14,431 bases of DNA, taken from positions 1 to 14,431 of the forward strand of contig JBDKSP010000006.1 in the NCBI GenBank assembly GCA_039680575.1. Direction: 5' to 3'. The translations under genes and the position numbers were made by a program. Shown here piece after piece: positions 472-14,212 of this stretch (its first letter is position 1; each line of letters starts with the position of its first letter). The stretch is from Armatimonadota bacterium. Its GTDB lineage: Bacteria; Armatimonadota; UBA5829; DTLH01. The notes under the pieces are model-generated. The model saw nothing but the letters and a program-made list of their open reading frames with translations, searched no databases and was not told the origin of the DNA.

Positions 472-599
472 AAGATCTCTCATTAAGAGTGAACTGTTAC
501 CTTCTTCGCGTTTTTTCACCCTTCTGTGATAAAATCCAGATAGATCACCGTTACTTCAGCGCATGCGCCGGAGAAAATAATGCGCCGTTTTTCCCACAA

Positions 600-630
600 G
601 TTAACAGACATCGACCCTGATGCGTCTAAT
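600..630 (+). promoter_or_regulatory. Putative ECF-type (autoregulatory) promoter
   Basis: GTTAAC-N17-CGTCTAAT directly before ATGATG at 631/634. AAC and CGTC are the typical ECF -35 and -10 cores. Confidence 0.5.
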
Positions 631-1236
631 ATGATGAAAGAGATGTTACCGGGCAGCTTAGTAAGTGCTGAGGCAAGCGCGATTGTCTCGGACCAAAACA
701 AATTGTTAGCGGCGGCGCAGCTTGGCGATTCTGATGCGTTCGGAGTACTGTTCGAACAGACAAAAAACGCAGTATATTCGTTCGTACTGAGATCGGTCGG
801 ATCAAAAGAGGATGCCGAAGATATCGTCCAAGAGGTCTATTGCCGGGCTTGGAGGTCGATCAACCGGTTCAGAGGCGATTCGAAACTCCTGACATGGCTC
901 TGCCGGATAGCTGCCAACCTGTGCATAGACCATTCGAGGTCGAAGCACAGAAGATCTTATACGGAAACTGAGACCGAAATCGATCTTGAGCAGATGGAAT
1001 TGACTCCACACCCAGACCAGAACATCGAGACCGGAAGTATCAACAGGTATATGATCAACGAGGCGCTGCAGAAAATCACTCCGGCCTGCAGGATGCTCGT
1101 TGTTTTATGCGATGTTCAGGGGTTCACCTGCAGCGAAGCTGCGGAGATAATCGGGTGCTCTCCAGTGAGCGCAAGAGTCAGACTGAGCCGGACCAGAAGA
1201 AAGCTGCGAAACCTGTTGCAGGATGAGGCGCTGTAA
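631..1236 (+). CDS. ECF (group 4) RNA polymerase sigma factor; start uncertain (ORF open from 580; 631, 634 or 643 more likely)
   Basis: Region 2 motifs GDSDAFGVLF, DAEDIVQEVYCRAW, FRGDSKLLTWLCRIAANLCID and region 4 HTH EAAEIIGCSPVSARVRLSRTRRKLR. No region 3. Confidence 0.95.
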   Translation: MMKEMLPGSLVSAEASAIVSDQNKLLAAAQLGDSDAFGVLFEQTKNAVYSFVLRSVGSKEDAEDIVQEVYCRAWRSINRFRGDSKLLTWLCRIAANLCIDHSRSKHRRSYTETETEIDLEQMELTPHPDQNIETGSINRYMINEALQKITPACRMLVVLCDVQGFTCSEAAEIIGCSPVSARVRLSRTRRKLRNLLQDEAL

Positions 1237-1237
1237 G

Positions 1238-1978
1238 ATGAGTATAAAATGCTATCTCGTGGCGTTGTGGCTGTCGGCGGCATCGGACGGCGCAGCGCTT
1301 CCACGGCTGATCGGAAAACATATTGACGGCTGCGAGCGGTGCCGGAAAGAAGCGGCAGCGTATAAACGCCTTAATACTGCACTGCTGGACGGCATCGCAA
1401 GCGATGAAAAGTGCGAACTCACCTGGGCGGAGATAAAGGCAAGCGCAGCTTTCAATAAGAACGAAGCCGTCAGACCGCGCCTGCCGCTCATTCTTAGCGC
1501 TTCGGCAGCATGCGTCCTGCTGGTCGCGATTATCGGGACCTGGATGCTGTGTCAGCCGAAGAATGAGGCTAAAATCGCCTGGATTCCCCTGGTCACTACA
1601 CCTGAAGTCAACGCGGACCAGGACAAACCTCAACAGATCGCATTACCTCAGCAGGAAAAACCGCGTCCGGCAAGCAAGCCTGCAGTTCAACCTGCCCACA
1701 AGCCAGAACGGGCTGCAGTTAAGCAGATTATCAAGCCCAGGCGCACCGTTGTGGCTGAGATCAAGAAAGAAAAACCTGTTAAGAACATAGTTCCACAAAA
1801 AGAAGAAGTCGCGGAAGCTCCGAATGATACGCAACCCGCGACTGCCAATGTAATTACCAGTAACGATGAAGAGCATGTGATCGGCGTTATGCGCACGACT
1901 TCGGAAGTTACTAATAATGATGACTTATACACTCCCGGTCAGGGAGACCAGCCGCGGTTCGTACTGGTAGATCTGTAA
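1238..1978 (+). CDS. Membrane-anchored zinc-binding anti-sigma factor (ZAS/zf-HC2) with Pro/Lys-rich extracytoplasmic tail
   Basis: C-x22-HIDGCERC (HxxxCxxC), one hydrophobic segment LILSASAACVLLVAIIGTWML, then a low-complexity P/K/E tail. Starts 1 nt after the sigma stop with GAGG upstream (alternative start 1223). Confidence 0.85.
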   Translation: MSIKCYLVALWLSAASDGAALPRLIGKHIDGCERCRKEAAAYKRLNTALLDGIASDEKCELTWAEIKASAAFNKNEAVRPRLPLILSASAACVLLVAIIGTWMLCQPKNEAKIAWIPLVTTPEVNADQDKPQQIALPQQEKPRPASKPAVQPAHKPERAAVKQIIKPRRTVVAEIKKEKPVKNIVPQKEEVAEAPNDTQPATANVITSNDEEHVIGVMRTTSEVTNNDDLYTPGQGDQPRFVLVDL

Positions 1979-2001
1979 TAACAAGGGGTGCTGCAGATAA
2001 A

Positions 2002-3495
2002 ATGAAGCTCAGATTTTTCATTCTGGCGTTGATCTCTATATGGCTTGCCGCGCCGCTCGGAGCGACGACCATGCAGGATCTGAGCAACGACATAACGGCA
2101 CTCATAAGGCATGCCGGATCCGCAGTAGTCGAAATACATTCCGTCCAAAAGGTATACGCCTCCAGTACAGACACATCGAATGCTGCCAAGGAACCGGTCG
2201 GACTCAAAAAACGGATCGGCTCCGGCTTCGTTATCAGCGCAGACGGCTCTGTCATGACCACAGGAAGCGTCGTAAACGGCGCGGATGCCATCAGCGTCAG
2301 ATTCACGGACGGCACGGCAATAGACGGGAAGTTAATGGGGATCGATCCGCTGACTGATATAGCAGTCGTTAAGGTCAAAGGGTCCGGTCTCAAGTTCCTG
2401 GAACTGGGAGACTCGAACGCACTGGCTCCCGGTATGCTTGTCCTCAGCATCAATAACCAGTCAGGGATGATCAACTCCGCCTCACTTGGGATGATATCCG
2501 GCGTCAGCAGGCGAATGGGGCTCAGCGCATCCGGCCTGCTCCAGATATCCGGAACGGTGGGCCCCGGTGCAAGCGGCGGCCCGGTGCTCGACTGCAAAGG
2601 AAAAGTAGTCGGCGTAACAGTGGCGATGATGGCTCCTTCCGCGACATTTCTTTGGTCCAAACTTCCGGACGACATTAAGACTGAGCTGGTGGAGCACGAA
2701 TGGGCAATGCTCGACCTGATGAACCGGCTGGGCTTCAAGATGCGGACGAGCAGTGATACGGTAGTCGATATAGAAAACCTGCTAAACGACCTGACAAATG
2801 TCTCCGGGAGCAGCGGGTTTGCTATCCCGATAGACAAGGTCAAACCGGTTATCGAGGATATGAAAGCCGGAAGACCAGTCAAAAGGAGCCGCCTGGGAGT
2901 ATCGGTTGCCGATAGAGACGGAGAGCTTGTTCTGGTTCCTCTAAAAGACGGTCCTGCGGCTACGGCGGGGATACAACCCGGCGATGTGTTCGTGAATGCC
3001 GATGGGAAGACCTTCAGGACCGCTGGTGAGTTTTCGGATTATATTTTGAACCTTGCGCCCGGAGATGTGGTAACCCTCGCAGTCAAACGGGGGAAAGAAA
3101 CAAAACTCATCAAAGTCAAGCTGGGCGAACGCGCGCTGGACACCCCTCAGCCAACTGTAAGCAAAAACAATAGAATTACCATCAGCTCATCCGGTTCCGG
3201 GACGGTCGGTGTGACCGCCCTTACGCTGGAGACTGCAACCGGGGCTGTAGCTGTCGCCAGGTCAGGCAATAGGATTGCACTCGATATCAAAAAATCGACC
3301 TTCAAAGACGTCGCACTGGCTCTTACGAAAGCGACCGACAGGAAAATTACGATTACGAACCCGAATAAGTTGAACAGAGTGCTCACCCTCAAAATCGAGC
3401 AGACAACCTTTGAACAGGCGCTTGAGGCCACCTGCAAAGCTGCGGGATGCACTTACCGTGTTGCTAAAGGAGCGTATGTCATTATCTCTAAATAG
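2002..3495 (+). CDS. Secreted HtrA/DegP-like trypsin domain + PDZ + C-terminal STN/secretin-N0-like domain; catalytic His apparently absent
   Basis: Signal peptide; GSGFVIS, TDIAVVKV, PGASGGP, GFAIP; PDZ (SRLGVSV...GPAATAGIQPGDV); C-terminal IALDIKKSTFKDVALAL...LTLKIEQTTFEQALEATCKAAGCTYRV. Confidence 0.9.
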   Translation: MKLRFFILALISIWLAAPLGATTMQDLSNDITALIRHAGSAVVEIHSVQKVYASSTDTSNAAKEPVGLKKRIGSGFVISADGSVMTTGSVVNGADAISVRFTDGTAIDGKLMGIDPLTDIAVVKVKGSGLKFLELGDSNALAPGMLVLSINNQSGMINSASLGMISGVSRRMGLSASGLLQISGTVGPGASGGPVLDCKGKVVGVTVAMMAPSATFLWSKLPDDIKTELVEHEWAMLDLMNRLGFKMRTSSDTVVDIENLLNDLTNVSGSSGFAIPIDKVKPVIEDMKAGRPVKRSRLGVSVADRDGELVLVPLKDGPAATAGIQPGDVFVNADGKTFRTAGEFSDYILNLAPGDVVTLAVKRGKETKLIKVKLGERALDTPQPTVSKNNRITISSSGSGTVGVTALTLETATGAVAVARSGNRIALDIKKSTFKDVALALTKATDRKITITNPNKLNRVLTLKIEQTTFEQALEATCKAAGCTYRVAKGAYVIISK

Positions 3496-3552: not shown

Positions 3553-4983
3553 CTACTGCATTACATACTCAACGGTTACAACTTCGCTGTTTGTCCATCC
3601 TGTCTTGAATGCTTTGGCCTTTATTGTCATACTCTGACTTACAGTGATAGGTCCTGTATGCTCAGTACTACTTTCTGTAGGGTCTGTTCCATCTGTGGTA
3701 TAGCGGATAGTTGTACCATCCCCAATCACACATGAGATTATAATCAATTGGCTCCCTGTATAATTACCACCCGCCGGGTTCATTGTCGGGGACGGTAGTT
3801 TCAAGGTATATGTTGCCGACTTTACCAGGCTTGATTTATGATCCGGAGAATATGCTCTGGCTTTTAATGTCATAGAGCTATCTACAGTTATCGGGCCTGC
3901 GTACTCAGTGCTGGTTGTAGTAGGATTGGTTCCGTCGGTGGTATAGCGAATTGTTGATCCACTGGTCACACAAGTGATCGTTACGGCCTGATTGCTGGTA
4001 TATGTGCCTTCAGCGAGGCTGAATGCAGGAGTAGAGGTAGTAGGCGGATATACATTGTAATTTTCTCCTGTTATGTCGAATACATCTCCTGTATTGGCAT
4101 CAACATATACTGTTGCGTAGCCTGCTTCATCTCCGTCAAGTCCTGCATTCACTGCTTGTTCATACATCTGAATAGTGTAGTTTGGTAATACGCTTGCGAT
4201 TAGCTCAATTCTATAAGCAAGTTTATATTCACCTTGTTCGGTTTTGGTGATCCACACGCCTCTATTTTTGTAAAGGATCACTGTCTGAATATTCAATGGA
4301 TCATCAGGATCATCAACTAATTCATTTCTGGCATAGCTAATTGCTGCTTGTTCTGCTATTGATGGTGTAACCGAATAACTTGTAGATAAGCTTGGAATGC
4401 CCATAAACTCAGCCTCACAGCTTACCACAATGCCTCTCCAGGCATCTACACTACAGCGGATATTGTTTTGATCGTTCCAAACACCGTTCGAAAGCCTTTG
4501 AAAGTAATACATTCCCGGAATTTCCGGGTAAGCATTCTGCATATTCAAGGCATCACATTCAGGATATTTCGAGCTAATGAACGAACGTACTATGCCGTTT
4601 AATTCTTCTGCTGGTAGCATTGTTTGGATGTTGCTCGGATTACTTTCGTCTTTCCGAGACGCCCGGGACTTGGCAAAATCAATCCACCAAAGGATTTTGC
4701 CGGTGTTGCAATCTACATCAAATTGCTGGTTGTTATCTGGTGTTTTAAATGCGTACTTCTTAATCCCCTTATCTTCCTTGATAATGTTTATGCCTCTTAA
4801 ATCCAATTGAAGATTCGGATCTCCCGCCCAATCTCTGGCTTTTTGCACTGCTTGCTCTAAAGTCACAGTAAATGACATTGTATTAGGATCATATGGAATT
4901 ATCCAACTTGGTGTTTCTGCAATCACCTTGATGCTGAGCATAAGAAATAACAATGCCAAGCATACTGTAGTATCTCTTTTCAA
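3553..4983 (-). CDS. Secreted protein with PepSY-like repeats and two C-terminal chitobiase-C/Fn3-associated domains
   Basis: TTG start at 4983 after GAGGAG; signal peptide; PepSY-like motifs (TLEQAVQKA, VDCNTGKI, VDAWRGIV, VDANTGDV); two repeats with GTY/GNY...IRYTTDGT(N/D)PT...GPITV...T(L/I)KA(R/K)A. Visibly AT-richer than its neighbours. Confidence 0.8.
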   Translation of the reverse strand: MKRDTTVCLALLFLMLSIKVIAETPSWIIPYDPNTMSFTVTLEQAVQKARDWAGDPNLQLDLRGINIIKEDKGIKKYAFKTPDNNQQFDVDCNTGKILWWIDFAKSRASRKDESNPSNIQTMLPAEELNGIVRSFISSKYPECDALNMQNAYPEIPGMYYFQRLSNGVWNDQNNIRCSVDAWRGIVVSCEAEFMGIPSLSTSYSVTPSIAEQAAISYARNELVDDPDDPLNIQTVILYKNRGVWITKTEQGEYKLAYRIELIASVLPNYTIQMYEQAVNAGLDGDEAGYATVYVDANTGDVFDITGENYNVYPPTTSTPAFSLAEGTYTSNQAVTITCVTSGSTIRYTTDGTNPTTTSTEYAGPITVDSSMTLKARAYSPDHKSSLVKSATYTLKLPSPTMNPAGGNYTGSQLIIISCVIGDGTTIRYTTDGTDPTESSTEHTGPITVSQSMTIKAKAFKTGWTNSEVVTVEYVMQ

Positions 4984-5222
4984 CTTATACACTCCTCTTC
5001 TCTTAGCTCGGATAATTTGTGATAAGAGTAACAGGAGCACACTCTGTCGAAGTAGTTGGTGATTAAACAGACTACAAAATGAAGGATGCTCCTGATGAAT
5101 AATACTGCACTTGACCTGGTTTTTCCTGCTGTTGGCGGCAGAAGCAAGCAGGGGAACCGAATCAAGGAGATAAAGCTGGACTTATCGAGTGTCAGGACGA
5201 GTTGCCACACCTTTCTTGCCAA

Positions 5223-5313: not shown

Positions 5314-6237
5314 ATGAAAGTAAGTATAATCGGCGGAGGTGGCCGGGTCGGATCAAACGCGGCGTTCACGCTCCAGCTTGGCGGACTGGTCCGCGAGATG
5401 GCGCTCGTGGATGTGGCGCTTGACCAAGCGAAGGGTGAAGCTCTCGATCTCAGACATGGGACATCGCTCGTCGCAGCGCAAAAGATTTACGCAGGCGGCT
5501 CCGAAGCCATAGACGGCTCGGATATCGTAGTTATTACCGCCGGCCTCAGAAGAAAGCCGGATGAGAGCCGGTTGGAACTGATGAACCGCAATGCCGGTCT
5601 CTTCCGTTCGATATTATCTGACGTTAAGAGCGCAAAGCTCCCTGACGGCGCGATAATCGTGGTCGTATCTAACCCTGTAGATATAATGACGCAGCTTGCC
5701 GTCGATACCGGAATCGTCCCGGCGAACAGGGTAATCGGCCTTGGGACGCTGCTCGATACCACACGCTTCAGATCGCTTCTGGCTGAGTATTTCAATGTTG
5801 CCCCGAAAGACGTAAATGCATTGATCCTTGGAGAACATGGGGATACTATGGTGCCGGTCTGGAGTTCCGCTGCGATAGGAAGTGTGCCGATTTCCGCGTT
5901 TCCCGGTTATGACGAGGAAAAGGTAAAAGCCGTGTTCGACTTTACGAACAAGAGCGGCGCGGAAGTCATCAGGCTGAAAGGCGGAGCAGGCTATGCGGTC
6001 GGGCTCGCGATACGCGAGCTGGTACATGCCATAATCCGTGATGAGCAGGCAGTGCTTCCGGTATCGACTCATCAGACCGGTGCGCTAGGCATAGAGGGCG
6101 TCTGCCTGTCGCTGCCTACGGTCATAGGACGAACAGGTGTTAAGGAAGTCGTAAGTATCGCGGTCAATGATACGGAACTGAAGGGTATAAAGAACTGCGC
6201 GGCTACACTTAAGGAAAGGCTGTCGCAGCTCGCGTAA
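5314..6237 (+). CDS. Lactate/malate dehydrogenase family protein (Arg at the specificity position, malate-type)
   Basis: GGGGRVG nucleotide-binding loop, ITAGLRRKPDESRLEL, VVSNPVD, GTLLDTTRFR, LGEHGD. GGAGG RBS at 5299-5303 supports the 5314 start rather than 5251. Confidence 0.93.
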   Translation: MKVSIIGGGGRVGSNAAFTLQLGGLVREMALVDVALDQAKGEALDLRHGTSLVAAQKIYAGGSEAIDGSDIVVITAGLRRKPDESRLELMNRNAGLFRSILSDVKSAKLPDGAIIVVVSNPVDIMTQLAVDTGIVPANRVIGLGTLLDTTRFRSLLAEYFNVAPKDVNALILGEHGDTMVPVWSSAAIGSVPISAFPGYDEEKVKAVFDFTNKSGAEVIRLKGGAGYAVGLAIRELVHAIIRDEQAVLPVSTHQTGALGIEGVCLSLPTVIGRTGVKEVVSIAVNDTELKGIKNCAATLKERLSQLA

Positions 6238-6259
6238 CTTCATATCCGGGAGGGATCAT

Positions 6260-6916
6260 ATGAAGATTCAGTGGCTTGGTCACAGCGCATTTCTTATTAC
6301 ATCCGATGCGGGTGTTCGAATTGTCACGGACCCTTACCAGCCGGGCAGTTTCAACGGCGGGTTAAGGTATGCACCGCTCAATAAGCCGGTAGATGTGGTT
6401 ACTATCTCACACGATCATGCCGACCACAACTACGTTCATATGGTGGCAGGCAAGCCGATTGTCATCAAAGTCGCAGGTATGTACATGGCGTCCGGCATAG
6501 AGTTCAACGGCGTGCAGACGATGCACGATACTTCATCCGGATCCGAGCGCGGCAGGAACACAGTCTTCACCTTTACCGTAGATGATATAAAGATATGCCA
6601 TATGGGCGATCTTGGGCATGTGCTGAGTTCCGATCAAGCCGCAGAGATCGGAGCCGTGGATGTGCTGCTTGTGCCGGTCGGCGGATATTATACTATCGGT
6701 CCGAAAGAAGCCCATCAGGTAGCAAACCAACTCGCCGCCAAGATCGTAATTCCGATGCATTACAAGACGGAAAAGGTGGATTTCCCGATAGTCGGGGTTG
6801 ATGAGTTTGTTAAAGGTATGCCGAACGTGACCCGGCTGGATTCCAGCATACTTGAGATCAGAAAGGAAGACGTGCCCGAGGAGAGACGGATCATCGTCCT
6901 GAAGCACGCACTGTAA
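6260..6916 (+). CDS. MBL-fold metallo-hydrolase (Lactamase_B_3/UlaG-like)
   Basis: WLGHSAF, TDPY, SHDHADHN, HMGDLGH, PVGG, IPMHY motifs; GGGAGG RBS. Confidence 0.92.
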   Translation: MKIQWLGHSAFLITSDAGVRIVTDPYQPGSFNGGLRYAPLNKPVDVVTISHDHADHNYVHMVAGKPIVIKVAGMYMASGIEFNGVQTMHDTSSGSERGRNTVFTFTVDDIKICHMGDLGHVLSSDQAAEIGAVDVLLVPVGGYYTIGPKEAHQVANQLAAKIVIPMHYKTEKVDFPIVGVDEFVKGMPNVTRLDSSILEIRKEDVPEERRIIVLKHAL

Positions 6917-7598: not shown

Positions 7599-8516
7599 AT
7601 GGCGGCTCTGACGGATAATGAGCTTATAGCACGGATAAATGAACTAAGGCAAAAGCGAAACGCCGTAATATTAGTCCATAACTATCAACTCGGAGATGTG
7701 CAGGACATAGCGGACTTCGCAGGAGACTCTCTTGAGCTTTCACGCAAGGCCGCGGCGACGAATGCGGACGTGATAGTCTTCTGCGGCGTCCACTTTATGG
7801 CGGAAACGGCAAAGATACTCTCTCCGGAGAAGACTGTGCTCCTGCCGGACGCCGGCGCCGGTTGTCCGATGGCGAGTATGATCGATGCGGACAGGCTGAG
7901 AGAGTTCAAATCCCAGCATCCGGGGCTGCCTGTAGTGGCATACGTCAACACTACGGCTGAGGTCAAGGCAGAGAGCGATATCTGCTGCACCTCAGCCAAT
8001 GCGCTCAAGGTCGTCGAATCACTCGATGCCGATGAGTTCATATTTGTGCCCGATAAGTCTCTCGGAGCGTATGTCGCGGCCAAAACAAACAAAAAAGTCG
8101 TGCTTTATCCCGGCTATTGCCCCACGCATCACAGGATACTCTCCAGCGATGTGCTGAACGCAAAGCGGGAGCACCCGAACGCGGTCGTTCTGGCGCATCC
8201 CGAGTGCGCCGGTGATGTGGTTCAACTGGCCGATGTCGTTGCGAGCACATCCCAGATGATACGGTGGGTGGCCGAGCACGATGCCGAAGAGGTTATCCTC
8301 TGCACAGAGCGAGGGATCATCCACAAGATGCAGAAGGACAACCCCGGCAAACGGTTCTACAACCCCTGCAGCTTGAACATCTGCCCGAATATGAAAAAGA
8401 TTACGCTCGAAAAGGTACTCTGGTCACTCGAGGACATGGTCCACGAGATCACGGTACCGGATGAGGTAATCGCCCGCGCGAAAAAGGCCATCGACGGAAT
8501 GCTGGCGATTGGGTAG
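7599..8516 (+). CDS. nadA: Quinolinate synthase A
   Basis: HNYQ, GDSLELS, FCGVHFMAETAKIL, AGCPMA, YVNT, CTSANA, GYCPTH, AHPEC, CPNMKKITL; three Fe-S cysteines present. Confidence 0.98.
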   Translation: MAALTDNELIARINELRQKRNAVILVHNYQLGDVQDIADFAGDSLELSRKAAATNADVIVFCGVHFMAETAKILSPEKTVLLPDAGAGCPMASMIDADRLREFKSQHPGLPVVAYVNTTAEVKAESDICCTSANALKVVESLDADEFIFVPDKSLGAYVAAKTNKKVVLYPGYCPTHHRILSSDVLNAKREHPNAVVLAHPECAGDVVQLADVVASTSQMIRWVAEHDAEEVILCTERGIIHKMQKDNPGKRFYNPCSLNICPNMKKITLEKVLWSLEDMVHEITVPDEVIARAKKAIDGMLAIG

Positions 8517-8605
8517 CTGACAGCAGAAAAGGACTGAAGGATGAGGTATGAGTGGTGGAAATCTTCACCATCCATCCTCTATCCCTTGATCCCCATCCCT
8601 TAGTT

Positions 8606-9934
8606 TCATGCCAACACCCTGAATGCCTCTTCAGGAGTGGTAATTCCTGCCAATATCTTCTCTTTCGCATCGTCACGAAGCGTCTTGAAGCCTTTCTGTC
8701 GTGCTTCGCCCAATATCTCAGCCAATGTCGCACCGTTGCCGATAATCTCCCGCATATCGCGGTCGATCTCCATGATTTCGTAGATACCTGTCCTTCCACG
8801 ATATCCAGTGTTCCTGCAATTAAGGCATCCCTGTCCTTTGTAGATTATGGATTTAGCAAGATCGTCTTGCGTAATGCCGAAGAATCTTATGATAGGATCA
8901 TTGAGATCGGCCTCCACCGGCCTTGCACATTTCCTGCATACTTTTCGCACAAGTCTCTGTGATTCCACCCCTAAAAGCGAAGCGCTGATAAGAAAATTAT
9001 CCAGCCCCATATCCCGCAGTCTTTGAATAACTCCTACAGCATCATCTGTATGTAGCTGCGATAACACCATGTGCCCCGTGATAGCGGTTTCCACTGCAAG
9101 CCGTGCGGTTTCCAGATCCGGAATCTCACCGACAGCGATTATATCCGGGTCGTGGCGCATAAATGATCTCAGCGCGGTAGTAAATGTATATCCTAATTTC
9201 TTATTAACCTGGGTCTGGTTAACTCCCAGCAGGGGATATTCCACCGGGTTTTCTATAGTCATAACCTTTGTTGCCGGAGACACTGATCGCATCAGTATAG
9301 AATATAGTACGGTAGTCTTCCCGGAACCGCTAGGCCCACTGGTGAAAAACAGCCCCATAGGTTGATGGATAATTCTGTCTAGTACGGCAAGATGCTCCTC
9401 ACTGAGACCTACCTTGTTCAGGTCGATGCACACATCTGTAGCATCAAGTATGCGTAGCACAACACCTTCTCCGTACACATAAGGTATGCAGGATGCCCTA
9501 AGGTCATAGTCTTTGCCATCCAGCTTCCATAGCAGTCTACCATCTTGGGATACGCGGCTCTCTTCGACACTCATATCCGACATCATCTTCAAGCGTGCAA
9601 GAATCCCTTGCCGCTGTACGGGTTCGATACGAGCTGCCTCTTGCATTACTCCATCTATACGATAGCGAACGAGCAATGTGTTATCCCGTTGGGACTCCAG
9701 GTGGATATCCGATGCGGATGCCTTAATAGCCTCGTTAATGATTTCTTCGACCTTTTTCACTACGGCATCTGTAGATGCCGCTTCCGTCCAGTCAAGCAAT
9801 CTACGAGCGTTTTCCAATTCCTGTCTGCACGCTGGGCACATTGCCAGATGTTTCTCCAAGCGTTCCCTTTTGTGTACAGTGAGTTCATCTTTCAGGTATG
9901 CTATAATCTCGGTTCTGGCCTGATCGCAATTCAT
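8606..9934 (-). CDS. Fusion of zf-HC2 (ZAS) anti-sigma domain and GspE/PilB-family secretion ATPase
   Basis: N-terminus MNC...AYLKDEL...HLAMCPAC, then ASDIHLE, RYRIDG, QDGR, Walker A GPSGSGKTT, TIENPVE, DPDIIAVGE, TGHMVLSQLHT, CRKC/CLNC zinc motif, GYRGRTGIYE, GITTPEE. Confidence 0.93.
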   Translation of the reverse strand: MNCDQARTEIIAYLKDELTVHKRERLEKHLAMCPACRQELENARRLLDWTEAASTDAVVKKVEEIINEAIKASASDIHLESQRDNTLLVRYRIDGVMQEAARIEPVQRQGILARLKMMSDMSVEESRVSQDGRLLWKLDGKDYDLRASCIPYVYGEGVVLRILDATDVCIDLNKVGLSEEHLAVLDRIIHQPMGLFFTSGPSGSGKTTVLYSILMRSVSPATKVMTIENPVEYPLLGVNQTQVNKKLGYTFTTALRSFMRHDPDIIAVGEIPDLETARLAVETAITGHMVLSQLHTDDAVGVIQRLRDMGLDNFLISASLLGVESQRLVRKVCRKCARPVEADLNDPIIRFFGITQDDLAKSIIYKGQGCLNCRNTGYRGRTGIYEIMEIDRDMREIIGNGATLAEILGEARQKGFKTLRDDAKEKILAGITTPEEAFRVLA

Positions 9935-10509
9935 TTGAGTATCTCCTTCAGCAAAGATTGCAGCCTTTTTACAGCCGTGAACATCCGTGATTTTACGATT
10001 CCTTCCGATATTTGCAGTATTTCGGCTATCTCAGCATATTTCATATCCCGTATATGGGACATCACAAATACCAGCTTCTGCCCCTCAGGCAGCATTTCTA
10101 TAGCCCGCAGGATACTGAGCCGCCGGTATTCCTCCATCAGCCGCATCTCCGGTTCCACGCGCTCATTTGCTTTGATATTCTCGAATACGCAAAATCCGCT
10201 CTGGTCCTCGTGCGAAAGCGACAGATCTTTCGCGCGTACTTTTCGCCCACGCCTTTGGTAAAGATAATAATTCTTGGCGATCTGGAACAGGTATGTAGAG
10301 AATTTCCCTGCCGGTATATACCTGTCACGAGCCATATAAAGCCGAATGAATACCTCCTGGACATAGTCTTCCGCTGTGTCCTGATCCCATGTCAGAGAAT
10401 AAAGAAACTTGTAGATATCCTCCCGATACCTGGTATAGAGCTTATCGAAGGCCGCGAAGTCGCCTTTTTTGACAAGTTCCATCAACTCAGTATCCGAAAG
10501 CTGTTCCAT
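9931..10509 (-). CDS. ECF RNA polymerase sigma factor
   Basis: SDTELM..VKKGDFAAFDKLY, AEDYVQEVFIRLY, FSTYLFQIAKN, MKYAEIAEILQISEGIVKSRMFTA. ATGA 4-nt overlap with the downstream gene; GAGGA RBS. Confidence 0.96.
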   Translation of the reverse strand: MEQLSDTELMELVKKGDFAAFDKLYTRYREDIYKFLYSLTWDQDTAEDYVQEVFIRLYMARDRYIPAGKFSTYLFQIAKNYYLYQRRGRKVRAKDLSLSHEDQSGFCVFENIKANERVEPEMRLMEEYRRLSILRAIEMLPEGQKLVFVMSHIRDMKYAEIAEILQISEGIVKSRMFTAVKRLQSLLKEILK

Positions 10510-10548
10510 ACATATCCTCTTCGAAAGGTATCTGTGCTGCTTCTTATA

Positions 10549-10577
10549 TATAGAATGCGTTCAGGTGAAAAAGGTTC
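10549..10577 (-). promoter_or_regulatory. Putative ECF-type promoter of the sigma/ZAS-ATPase operon
   Basis: Minus strand GAAC-ctttttcacctgaa-CGCATTCTATA, about 40 nt upstream of the sigma ATG and downstream of a terminator. Confidence 0.55.
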
Positions 10578-10613
10578 GCATTTCGGAGACATAATTCATA
10601 TGCGGAGTGATGT

Positions 10614-10651
10614 TGAAGAAAAGGCCGGCGGATGATTAATCTACCGGCCTT
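10614..10651 (-). terminator. Rho-independent terminator after the small secreted protein gene
   Basis: Minus strand AAGGCCGGTAGAT-taatc-ATCCGCCGGCC followed by TTTTCTTC; 7 nt after the stop at 10658. Confidence 0.75.
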
Positions 10652-10657
10652 CCTGGT

Positions 10658-10987
10658 TTAGCGTCTTGCGCGATGGTTTTTCGCGTAATATCTCTCTACG
10701 TGGTGCTTACCGTTGTAATAACCCCGGCGATAACCGCTTTGGTAAGATTTCCACCTTACTTCCTGCTGGCGCGCTTTGCTATACTGACGCCACGCGTAAT
10801 ACGATCCGGCTCCAAGGGCAAGTCCCTGTGTTCCTTTGCCCTTCGCCAGACTGTATATTGCCGCAGCCGTCACTGCAATCGCTGTGTTCCTGCGGCCGGT
10901 ACTGCCGGCCATGGCTATCGTAGGCGACAACACAGTCAATACGAAAAGTGATAATATTACGAAAATTCCAGCCTTCCTGGCTCTCAT
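10658..10987 (-). CDS. Small secreted/membrane basic hypothetical protein (Gly/Ala-rich helices, Tyr/Arg-rich tail)
   Basis: ATG at 10987 after GAGGAG; signal peptide ending AMA; GRRNTAIAVTAAAIYSLAKGKGTQGLALGAGSYYAW. The track's 11017 start falls inside the repeat element. Confidence 0.8.
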   Translation of the reverse strand: MRARKAGIFVILSLFVLTVLSPTIAMAGSTGRRNTAIAVTAAAIYSLAKGKGTQGLALGAGSYYAWRQYSKARQQEVRWKSYQSGYRRGYYNGKHHVERYYAKNHRARR

Positions 10988-11006
10988 TGTACTGCTCCTC
11001 TTTCTA

Positions 11007-11075
11007 AGGAGTTTCAAGATAACACCTGAAACTCCGCCAGATGATTTTCGGCTAATTACAGCCGAAAATCATCTG
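11007..11075 (+). mobile_element. Two-hairpin element, copy 2
   Basis: cTAAG-GAGTTTCAAG-ataaca-CCTGAAACTC-cgccagat-GATTTTCGGC-taattaca-GCCGAAAATC. The second stem extends to a perfect 16 bp (11038-11053 / 11060-11075) and overlaps the stop codon at 11069-11071. Confidence 0.75.
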
Positions 11076-12082
11076 TGTAGCAACTGCTCTATCTTCTGCA
11101 GTTTTTTGTCACTGTCGTTATCTTTATCTTTGTCTTTGTTTTTCTTGTCCCAGCCTTTGTGTTTACCGATCTCCCAGCCCTTGTGCAGGCCGTTGTCATT
11201 TTTGTCTGTCTGCTTGCTGGTAGAACGATAAGTCCGGCTGCTCTTGCTGGTCTTGCTGTTGTCTTTTTGGTCCGCGATACTTGTATCTATGACCGCTGTG
11301 ACGCCTGCACCGTCTACGCGCTTCATCTTGAGCGGGTTCGATGAATTGGTCGGAACGAGGACCTTAACACGGAACTTGCCGTGGGAGAACAGGTTCTCAT
11401 ACTGCCATACCGCAGCGACTTTATCCACTATGCGGCCCGTGCTTGCCACCTGCGCGCCGCCGATATAGGCTTTTTCGCCGAAACTCGCCATTGGGACGAC
11501 CGCCGTCACCGCGTTTTTGTTGAATGTGATCGTATTGATGAACTTATCGATCGACTTCGATGCCGCCTTGACCCCGACAGCTACCGCAGCGGCTCTCAGG
11601 ACCTCTCCGCCTTTGATGCTGCCGCTGTAGTACTCATTGCTCAACCCACCAGCCAGAGCAACATCGATGACAGCCGATACACCGACTTTTTCCACTCTCT
11701 TCAACTGAAGCGGGTTCAGGCTGGAGCTGGGAACAAGCGCTTTTATCCTGTAACGCCCGTTATCGAAGTTCTGCTCATACTGAAATACCGCTTTGACATC
11801 CTTAATCAACTTTGCAGGGCCTGTAACCTGCGCGCCGCCGACATAGCCCTTGTTACCGACTGAAAGGATCGGCACTACCTTGGTATCCAGCTTACTGGAT
11901 AAGCCCTTCTGGAACGTTATCGTATTGATAAACTTGTCCAGCGCGCCTGCCGATTGCTTGACCGCATAACCGACCGCCGCGCCCCTAAGAGCCTTCGTCC
12001 CAAGCGATACCGCTCCCACCGGTGCAGCAACCGCTGCGAACATCGCGGCAATCACAACCAAAACTATCAACTTTCGTATCAT
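11069..12082 (-). CDS. Secreted hypothetical protein with two tandem ~110-aa domains and a Lys/Asp-rich tail
   Basis: Signal peptide; repeated DKFINTITF...VVP..S.G.K.Y.GGAQV...V.AV.QYE..F..G...R.K.LVP..S.NPL..KRV...GV.AVID; tail GLHKGWEIGKHKGWDKKNKDKDKD; GGAGG RBS. Confidence 0.88.
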   Translation of the reverse strand: MIRKLIVLVVIAAMFAAVAAPVGAVSLGTKALRGAAVGYAVKQSAGALDKFINTITFQKGLSSKLDTKVVPILSVGNKGYVGGAQVTGPAKLIKDVKAVFQYEQNFDNGRYRIKALVPSSSLNPLQLKRVEKVGVSAVIDVALAGGLSNEYYSGSIKGGEVLRAAAVAVGVKAASKSIDKFINTITFNKNAVTAVVPMASFGEKAYIGGAQVASTGRIVDKVAAVWQYENLFSHGKFRVKVLVPTNSSNPLKMKRVDGAGVTAVIDTSIADQKDNSKTSKSSRTYRSTSKQTDKNDNGLHKGWEIGKHKGWDKKNKDKDKDNDSDKKLQKIEQLLHR

Positions 12083-13111: not shown

Positions 13112-14212
13112 ATGAAGATAGTATGCTCGCGGAAGGATCTTTTTGAGGGAGTTCAGACTACAGTCAGGGCTGTAAGCTCCAGGTCATCATTGCCTATTCT
13201 ATCGCATCTGCTCATAAGCGCACAGGATGGAATAGTCAAACTTGCAGCTACAGACCTCGAAATTGGAGTCGAATGCAAGATCAATGCGAGCATAGAGGAG
13301 CCAGGCTCTCTTACTGTACCTGCCAGAATAGTCTCCGAGATGCTCTCGACCCTGCCGGAGAGCGATGTAACGATCTCAGTGGACGAGAACAACCGGGTCA
13401 GCCTCAAATGCGGAACATCGGACTACCAGATATTGGGGCTCCCCGCAGAGGAGTTCCCGATGCTCCCCGAAGTCAAGGACGAAGTTTCCTTTACCATAGA
13501 AAAGTCCGCCTTAAGAAGCACTATCGAGAAGACTATCTTTGCCGTCTCCCAGGATGAGTCCAGAGCATCGCTGACAGGGGTCCTTATCATGCTCGAGGAA
13601 GGTGAACTGAGATTGGTCTCCACGGACACCCACAGGCTCTGCATGATGGAATGCCCTATCACTGAAGGCAAGGGGCAGACCGCAGCTATAGTGCCCGGAA
13701 GAGCTATGGGAGAGCTGCACAGGATAGTCCAGGATGAGGACGGAGTCGTTACGGTAAATGTCTCGCAGAGCCAGGTGCTCTTCTCCGTAGACGGCACTGT
13801 GCTTATTTCCAGGTTGATCGAAGGGCAGTTCCCCAACTTCGAGAAGGTCATCCCCCAGGAGTTCAACAAGCAGTTGATAGTCCCGACCGACCAGTTACTT
13901 CAGAGTGTACGCCGCGCGGCTATCGTCGCCAGAGAGAACGCAAACCGGATAGTTTTACGCACACAGGACGCAAAGCTGACTGTTACCGCTGAAAGCAGCT
14001 CGGTCGGAACAGCCTACGAGGAAGTCGACATCGTTATCGACGGCGAAGACATCGAGATGGCCTTCAGTGCGAAGTATCTGATGGATTTTCTCGGCGTAAT
14101 CGGCACTGAAGCAATCGAAATGCAGCTTACCGGCAACCTGAGCCCGGCGCTTTTGAAACCCCAGGACGATGATACCTACAATTACGTGCTGATGCCGATG
14201 CAGCTCAGGTAA
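13112..14212 (+). CDS. dnaN: DNA polymerase III beta sliding clamp
   Basis: 366 aa; LPILS, AATDLEIG, EEFP, STDTHRL, SRLIEGQFPNFEKVIP, AFSAKYLMD, YVLMPMQL. Confidence 0.98.
   Translation: MKIVCSRKDLFEGVQTTVRAVSSRSSLPILSHLLISAQDGIVKLAATDLEIGVECKINASIEEPGSLTVPARIVSEMLSTLPESDVTISVDENNRVSLKCGTSDYQILGLPAEEFPMLPEVKDEVSFTIEKSALRSTIEKTIFAVSQDESRASLTGVLIMLEEGELRLVSTDTHRLCMMECPITEGKGQTAAIVPGRAMGELHRIVQDEDGVVTVNVSQSQVLFSVDGTVLISRLIEGQFPNFEKVIPQEFNKQLIVPTDQLLQSVRRAAIVARENANRIVLRTQDAKLTVTAESSSVGTAYEEVDIVIDGEDIEMAFSAKYLMDFLGVIGTEAIEMQLTGNLSPALLKPQDDDTYNYVLMPMQLR

Follow-up and report, generated by a model that had tools for sequence, protein, structure and literature searches.

We found a two-gene cassette that pairs a sigma factor with an anti-sigma factor fused to a motor-type ATPase in a 14,431-nucleotide (nt) stretch of DNA from a bacterium of the phylum Armatimonadota (assembly GCA_039680575.1, contig JBDKSP010000006.1; the whole stretch is hereafter called the window). 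The first gene encodes an extracytoplasmic function (ECF) sigma factor, and the second encodes a zinc anti-sigma (ZAS) domain that continues into the core of a PilB/GspE-type ATPase. In the reading that we prefer, to which we give a probability of roughly 0.55, this is an autoregulated cassette in which a soluble anti-sigma factor is mounted rigidly on a catalytically complete ATPase core, with release of the sigma factor under the control of a nucleotide or a ligand. The two genes, and the domains of the second, are as follows.

9931..10509, minus strand: ECF (group 4) sigma factor P0002, 192 amino acids, with Sigma70_r2 and Sigma70_r4_2.
8606..9934, minus strand: fusion gene P0001, 442 amino acids, with zf-HC2 and T2SSE.
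9770..9934, minus strand: anti-sigma domain (class I, zinc type) of P0001, residues 1-55, placed by zf-HC2 and by helices of an AlphaFold2 model.
9425..9769, minus strand: N2 domain of PilB/GspE type, about residues 56-170, placed by the T2SSE profile from its position 2 and by PilB fold matches.
8606..9424, minus strand: C-terminal RecA-like ATPase domain, about residues 171-442 and the stop codon, placed by motifs, invariant columns and Foldseek.

Judged by its profile matches, P0002 is an ECF (group 4) sigma-70 factor. Sigma70_r2 lies at residues 24-90 (E 3.2e-14) and Sigma70_r4_2 at residues 131-183 (E 2.4e-15), both above the Pfam cut-offs, and the protein carries no other Pfam domain. 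It scores 103.7 bits against the sigma70-ECF model TIGR02937, whose cut-off is 42.9, and reaches no NCBIfam equivalog cut-off, the best being PRK12513 (139.8 vs 206). At 9931-9934 the letters ATGA hold both the stop codon (TGA) of P0002 and the start codon (ATG) of P0001.

The product of P0001 begins with a compact anti-sigma head. The zf-HC2 profile matches residues 3-37 with 33.7 bits against a cut-off of 22.2, the ligand motif reads C3-x25-H29LAMC33PAC36, and three helices are predicted at 3-14, 20-32 and 34-53, where the predicted local distance difference test (pLDDT) of the AlphaFold2 model is 83-90. The T2SSE profile (PF00437) then spans residues 52-439, covering positions 2-370 of its 370 positions (E 2.7e-111). 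The catalytic motifs are all intact, namely Walker A GPSGSGKTT (200-208), the Asp box TIENPVEY and Walker B DPDIIAVGE with E270, and the His box TGHMVLSQLHT and the tetracysteine C333/C336/C370/C373 are present too. The model of the whole protein has a pLDDT of 91.9, and Foldseek gave template modelling (TM) scores, normalised to the target, of 0.91 to 5tsh_E and 0.94 to 5oiu_B. Residues 51-440 align to residues 195-583 of the PilB of Geobacter metallireducens (6olj_C, E 7e-102), with residues 1-50 replacing PilB residues 1-194; thus, the anti-sigma domain occupies the place of the N1 region. Kyte-Doolittle hydropathy averaged over 19 residues peaks at 1.04, which gives no sign of a transmembrane segment in the protein. 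An earlier reading of this DNA from its letters alone (the sequence-only reading) had given the same open reading frame (ORF) coordinates, the ATGA overlap and the C-x25-HLAMCPAC motif, and had described a protein free of transmembrane segments in which a ZAS domain stands in the N1 position and runs into the N2 domain and RecA-like core. The sequence, the hydropathy profile, the Pfam matches, the 6olj_C alignment and the fold bear out this description.

The two parts are joined directly. The first helix of N2 (56-71) comes two residues after helix 3 of the anti-sigma domain with no flexible linker between them, and the junction WTEAAS (49-54) is among the best-kept parts of the N-terminus, is constant in length and lies inside the interface predicted with the sigma factor. 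In class I anti-sigma domains as described in PMC7406223, three helices bind sigma-4, and a flexible linker leads to helix 4, which binds sigma-2 and keeps it from contacting RNA polymerase.

P0001 belongs to the T2SSE superfamily without being a PilB or a GspE, since the N1 region is missing, both equivalog cut-offs are missed and its gene lies outside any operon of a machine. The N1 profile T2SSE_N (PF05157, MshEN-type) gave no match in P0001, while the nearest ordinary relatives all have PF05157. The scores are 448 bits for GspE (TIGR02533, cut-off 630) and 423.3 bits for PilB (TIGR02538, cut-off 675.65).

The window is the whole of a short contig of a metagenome-assembled genome, which would suit an assembly chimera or a decaying one-off fusion. 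This explanation was ruled out. A 2579-nt contig of another study spans positions 8500-10700 with 52 substitutions and no indel, and a piece from a second run bridges 9535-9943, so that both cover the junction near 9750-9800, whose confirmation the sequence-only reading had asked for. Among the 120 best protein matches, 57 further clusters (formed at 90% identity) have the same architecture, PF13490 plus PF00437, as do at least 40 genomes, given below, with open frames and conserved motifs. The 57 clusters are 439-449 amino acids long, save one of 410, and 42-79% identical to P0001; their named members are all Armatimonadota or labelled "bacterium". The next-best matches after them are ordinary PilB/GspE proteins with PF05157, about 48% identical. 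In a set of representatives clustered at 50% identity, the best 150 hits include 20 whose match starts at profile position 1-6, with lengths of 436-494 amino acids.

Conservation extends to both parts of the protein and to the joint between them. All 37 aligned members have C3, H29, C33 and C36, and the Walker A glycines and threonines, E228/E232, D262/P263, G287 and the four C-terminal cysteines are likewise invariant. The alignment is free of gaps in columns 1-84. In a motif table of 64 family sequences, Walker A, the Asp box, Walker B and the first histidine of the His box (TGH) are retained in nearly all members of the zinc type, and the second His-box histidine is more variable.

A tree of 92 ATPase cores, read without a root, separates this family from ordinary motors. 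It was made from 55 zinc-type forms, nine zinc-free forms, 25 ordinary proteins (every third of P0062-P0121 and five chosen) and three paralogues of the host genome. All fused forms stand on one side of a branch with a Shimodaira-Hasegawa-like approximate likelihood ratio (SH-aLRT) support of 99, and 23 of the ordinary PilB/GspE proteins stand on the other together with the three paralogues. The two remaining "ordinary" rows, P0043 (384 amino acids) and P0053 (433 amino acids), nest among the fused forms and are probably gene calls truncated at the N-terminus. This topology fits one old fusion event.

The fusion gene keeps its sigma partner in every locus examined. We searched 401 Armatimonadota genomes with a 78-position N-terminal profile; 29 genomes, including the host, match positions 1-78 or 2-78 with at least 67.8 bits, and the others gave only generic ZAS domains or weaker matches. 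By Pfam, 28 of 29 other loci (27 of the zinc type and the zinc-free L040) have an ECF gene as the immediate 5' neighbour of the fusion gene, in the same orientation, and in the remaining locus, in genome G211, a member of the same sigma family stands about 350 nt 3' of the fusion gene. Twenty weaker N-terminal matches were also fetched, and 11 of them (L068-L078) hold the same pair, in which an ATPase gene matching its family profile from position 1-8 to the end is preceded directly by a sigma gene that matches the sigma family profile (E 1e-34 to 1e-67). L086, a wider stretch of L040, holds the same pair again; L079-L085 and L087 are ZAS proteins without the ATPase body and were left out of the counts. 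Taken together, a sigma gene of one family adjoins the fusion gene in 40 of 40 other loci examined. The fusion is present in at least 40 of the 401 sampled genomes, spread over many family-level groups, with two copies in G031. The genes overlap or are separated by 3 nt or less in 21 of 28 measurable loci (a read-off tally). In several GC-rich loci simple ORF picking missed the sigma gene, where longer antisense frames exist, and the family profile recovered it in 8 of 8 re-scanned loci, three of which had previously been missed. The distances among the sigma factors correlate with those among the fusion proteins (r 0.87 over 22 loci, matched by 0 of 2000 permutations); this means co-inheritance and no more. 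A narrow five-row N-terminal scan beyond these genomes, which is no proof of absence elsewhere, gave six full matches, the named ones all from Armatimonadota, and four partial matches to generic ZAS domains in other phyla.

It is conceivable that the ATPase core senses the status of a pilus or secretion machine, as the sequence-only reading had suggested; the core would dock on PilC/GspF or mix with true PilB rings, and the sigma factor would be held or released according to the state of assembly. The ATPase body does have the PilB fold and motifs, the host genome has three full-length PilB/GspE genes besides PilT-like genes, and in locus L051 (genome G085) a headless ATPase of the same family (5438-6604, minus strand; profile 60-443, 470 bits) follows directly downstream of the ZAS-ATPase gene and could be a partner in mixed rings. 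However, the gene context gives this tie no support. A Pfam scan of 14 ORFs of the window, three of which have no Pfam family, found no pilin, PilC/GspF or secretin family, in agreement with what had been read from the letters. The genes of the window were also clustered with those of 20 wider loci (8-18 kb), and apart from the sigma gene and the fusion gene none was common to as many as three loci; genes for pilins, a platform or a secretin are thus not conserved beside the pair there. PilB/GspE proteins dock on PilM/GspL through N1, which P0001 lacks, and the fused family is an old clade separate from the PilB/GspE proteins of its hosts. The cassette was not found in G198, a genome of the same genus that is 98% complete, nor in four genomes of the same family, and its nearest relative (79%) belongs to another family-level group, so its distribution is patchy. 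We therefore regard a pilus or secretion sensor as unlikely.

Binding of the sigma factor by the head is supported by a model. The sigma factor (an alignment of 22 rows) was folded together with the first 60 residues of the fusion protein, for which 22 rows were taken from the same loci. The interface score ipSAE was 0.74, 0.74 and 0.73, and the best of three controls gave 0.00; 116 of 157 solved complexes attain this mark, as do 2 of 215 mismatched pairs, counts that are approximate since own alignments were used here. Between runs at least 89% of contacts agree, and the partner pLDDT is 85 or more. In the predicted interface, helix 1 (8-17) and the end of helix 3 with the junction (42-57) lie on region 4 of the sigma factor (129-191), and one sigma-2 residue (38) is added. 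Positions A12, E17, A43, L47, T50 and A53 of the head and K173, M176 and L183 of the sigma factor, all in this interface, are invariant or nearly so. The view that the gene after the ECF gene encodes its soluble ZAS anti-sigma factor, taken by the sequence-only reading from gene order and the ZAS motif, is thus upheld by the zf-HC2 match, by the adjacency in all 40 other loci and by this supportive model, and we consider the pairing of sigma and anti-sigma well supported on both sequence and model.

The zinc ligands invite another explanation, in which the head is a thiol or redox switch like RsrA and the ATPase body is a passive scaffold for oligomerisation or has a separate job. Oxidants or electrophiles would react with the cysteines of the ZAS domain, the zinc would leave, and the sigma factor would go free. 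The invariance of the four ligands speaks for it, as does a match of residues 2-44 to the RsrA model TIGR03988 (E 4e-6), although this match is weak, with 26.8 bits against a cut-off of 62.5. PMC7406223 describes soluble class I anti-sigma factors as enriched in zinc motifs and often linked to redox sensing, but also notes that the zinc motif may be structural in groups that mix zinc and non-zinc members. A sister branch of nine loci and G386, the latter with its gene in two frames, has lost all four ligands from the head (L068-L075, L078 and L086; consensus ALAYLRGEMN..ER.AFE..L) and yet keeps the sigma partner and the ATPase body, which argues against zinc or thiol chemistry as the universal input. 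Moreover, a redox switch gives no reason why the ATPase motifs and the gapless junction are so strongly conserved. Thus, the probability of this explanation is low in our estimate, as low as that of the pilus sensor.

Some side forms were seen in and around the family. In G386 (L086) the gene is split into parts of 270 and 644 amino acids and may be frameshifted. The top representatives of the family profile, P0122-P0135, are about 980-1050 amino acids long and match the ATPase core twice (tandem double T2SSE). L081, L082 and L084, from the same-family genomes G298, G004 and G267, encode proteins of 373-433 amino acids in which the N-terminal profile occurs twice in tandem (e.g. 6-66 and 84-131) and the ATPase body is absent.

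Upstream of the sigma gene lie a predicted promoter and a probable terminator.

10551..10577, minus strand: ECF-type operon promoter, with a -35 element GAACC(TTTTT) and a -10 region GCATTCTA, 42 nt before the sigma ATG.
10615..10653, minus strand: probable terminator after the upstream ORF of 119 amino acids, an RNA hairpin followed by the U-run UUUUCUUC.

The pair of -35 and -10 elements is GAACCTTTTTCACCTGAACGCATTCT. Its layout, GAACCTTTTT-N9-GCATTCTA, which equals GAACC-N14-GCATTCTA, combines an AAC-type -35 with a CGT-type -10 element, and the form conserved 5' of the sigma gene is GAACCTTTT-N10-G-GTT. In 25 of 25 loci with a placeable sigma start, (G/C/A)AAC(C/A), a T-run and a G-GTT---A block stand at fixed spacing, with the consensus cGAACCTTTT-N10-G-GTT--A. 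Outside the anchor these sites hold 14.8 bits of information, a figure somewhat inflated because the sites were picked partly by their likeness to a -10 element, against 3.9 +/- 0.6 bits (maximum 6.1 in 1000 draws) for GAAC[CA] sites drawn at random from these loci. The strict motif occurs once in the 2.97-Mb genome, at the operon itself. Looser patterns gave 6-20 sites in the genome, none with convincing promoter geometry. In five relatives the strict motif marks their own operon and two sites of other spacing, and a reversed-pattern control gave 0. Because the promoter is conserved and specific to the operon, autoregulation of the operon by its sigma factor is likely. The hairpin of the terminator has a folding energy of -19.9 kcal/mol (z -4.85), and 0 of 200 shuffles were equally stable; this terminator probably makes the sigma operon a transcription unit of its own. 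A scan of positions 8300-11100 for sigma-70-like promoters found 0 where 3.7 were expected. Two metatranscriptome runs of the source study contain almost no sequence words of this stretch and are uninformative on its expression.

The logic of the cassette might also run the other way. The head would then be an adaptor through which the sigma factor or RNA polymerase regulates or localises the ATPase, and the ATPase, acting on some substrate, would be the main output of the operon. That the one recognisable target of the promoter motif, in the host and in five relatives, is the operon itself would accord with this, and so would ATPase motifs that are as in working motors. However, autoregulation together with a co-transcribed anti-sigma factor is the usual layout of ECF operons, a head with an anti-sigma motif and a predicted sigma-4 interface is typical of inhibitors, and no gene for a substrate or partner is conserved nearby. 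We consider such a reversal improbable, more so than either a redox switch or a pilus sensor.

Since the catalytic motifs are intact and the junction is rigid, an anti-sigma factor controlled by nucleotide or by assembly is the best reading, and it is plausible but unproven on sequence grounds that the ATPase controls sigma release. It might work as follows. The three-helix head of the zinc type would bind region 4 of the sigma factor and keep it off RNA polymerase, and the ATPase body would form the usual ring. The N2 domain of PilB-type motors moves relative to the C-domain as the nucleotide state changes. Movements of this kind, or assembly of the ring, may alter the grip of the head and of the first N2 helix on the sigma factor. 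In the model, this helix (56-71) stands at the place of anti-sigma helix 4, which is normally the binder of sigma-2; either the N2 helix may double as helix 4, or the ATPase body may occlude sigma-2, and either would tie the grip to N2. The ATP/ADP state of the motor, or a ligand that it binds, would decide between release and capture of the sigma factor, and the freed sigma factor would transcribe at least its own operon from the GAACC...GCATTCTA promoter. A bolder form of this idea is that a ring of six subunits cages up to six sigma factors and that ATP-driven movements of N2 and the C-domain, passed on through a rigid junction whose first N2 helix also serves as anti-sigma helix 4, release them, which would make the protein a secretion motor domesticated for signalling in the cytoplasm. 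We advance this form only tentatively, as one that may well turn out to be wrong.

Several points temper this reading. Some members of the zinc-free branch have a degenerate Walker A (e.g. TGAAASGKTT, AATTGSGRNM) and two have no tetracysteine, so hydrolysis may be dispensable there and the ATPase body is perhaps a scaffold or a binding module. Solved complexes of ECF sigma factors with ZAS domains exist, and the score of our complex may reflect likeness to these instead of binding by this particular copy. The complex was modelled with head residues 1-60 alone. In addition, the strict promoter motif marks only the cassette's own operon in the host and in the five relatives, so that no further target of a regulon can be named.

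The rest of the window holds other genes. nadA lies 3' of the sigma/fusion pair and is convergent with it. Upstream of the operon, two ORFs at 10658-12082 (minus strand) encode proteins of 119 amino acids, with a hydrophobic N-terminus, and of 337 amino acids; neither has a Pfam or NCBIfam family. A second ECF module lies at 580-3495 (plus strand). In it, the gene of a 218-amino-acid ECF sigma factor (580-1236) overlaps an ORF of 251 amino acids that has no Pfam family and a weak match to the anti-sigma model NF052375 (E 2.5e-4), and next comes a trypsin-like protease of 497 amino acids that has a PDZ domain and ends in a faint FecR_C-like tail. The ORF at 3553-5040 (minus strand) encodes 495 amino acids, in which two CHB_HEX_C_1/Fn3_assoc repeats were found as well as a faint match to PepSY. 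The G+C content there is low (0.41-0.43 vs about 0.52 around it), and the ORF may have been acquired. dnaN is found at 13112-14212 (plus strand), at the end of the 14.4-kb contig, whose cumulative GC skew changes direction near 12.5-13 kb; the replication origin may be close to the window, although the skew also follows the gene strand here. PADLOC gave no matches to defence systems.

Few signal-transduction devices of bacteria are as common as ECF sigma factors. Their known routes of release are proteolysis, sensing of redox state or of ligands, partner switching, phosphorylation and C-terminal extensions. If our reading is right, a nucleotide-driven, ring-forming sensor would be added to these routes and a secretion ATPase would have been reused for gene regulation; control of an ECF sigma factor by nucleotide or energy state would be without described precedent. 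Because the module is small, self-contained and under its own promoter, it is directly testable in a heterologous host, and if it works there it might serve as an orthogonal switch. The reading would also give a function to proteins of Armatimonadota that now bear the misleading annotations "GspE/PulE family" or "TadA", and may interest those who study ECF signalling as well as those who study secretion ATPases. The sequence-only reading knew of no ECF sigma factor regulated in this way, and none was found in the literature searched, which gave no description of a fusion of an anti-sigma factor with PilB/GspE; the terms "T2SSE" and "PF00437" are absent from the main text and part of the supplement of PMC7826278, the rest of which could bear on the matter, and from the main text and supplementary table of PMC7406223.

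Among known systems, the closest in layout is ChrR with sigma-E in Rhodobacter sphaeroides. Both ChrR and P0001 are soluble proteins with an N-terminal ZAS domain of the same ligand spacing and a cytoplasmic C-terminal domain, both are encoded directly after the ECF gene, and both operons are autoregulated, ours probably so. However, the C-terminal sensor domain of ChrR is a cupin, whereas P0001 has in the sensor's place an N2 and ATPase core of about 390 residues, which follows helix 3 without a flexible linker and would be expected to form rings and to bind nucleotide. RsrA with sigma-R in Streptomyces coelicolor is likewise a soluble zinc anti-sigma factor with HxxxCxxC, and the TIGR03988 match over residues 2-44 of P0001 is to its model. 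RsrA, however, consists of the anti-sigma domain alone; P0001 stays at 26.8 of the 62.5 bits required, and in its family the partnership outlasts the loss of zinc ligands.

The ATPase part finds its counterpart in PilB/GspE (5tsh, 6olj; Thermus PilF 5oiu), to which the core of P0001 is 42-43% identical with TM scores of 0.91-0.94 and all motifs present. It differs from PulE, EpsE and other PilB/GspE proteins in that an anti-sigma head replaces N1, that its gene lies outside a pilus or secretion operon and that it belongs to a separate clade.

Nucleotide-responsive anti-sigma factors are, to our knowledge, known only among the unrelated kinases SpoIIAB and RsbW. The hold of these on their sigma factors depends on ATP/ADP, a dependence that we infer for P0001. 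However, SpoIIAB and RsbW have the GHKL kinase fold, work with an antagonist by partner switching and act on group 3 sigma factors, and no sequence relation to P0001 was seen. FlgM with sigma-28 shows that a sigma factor can be coupled to a machine of the secretion type; FlgM, however, is an exported substrate and not a part of the motor, whereas P0001 is built on a motor core and no genes of a machine are linked to it.

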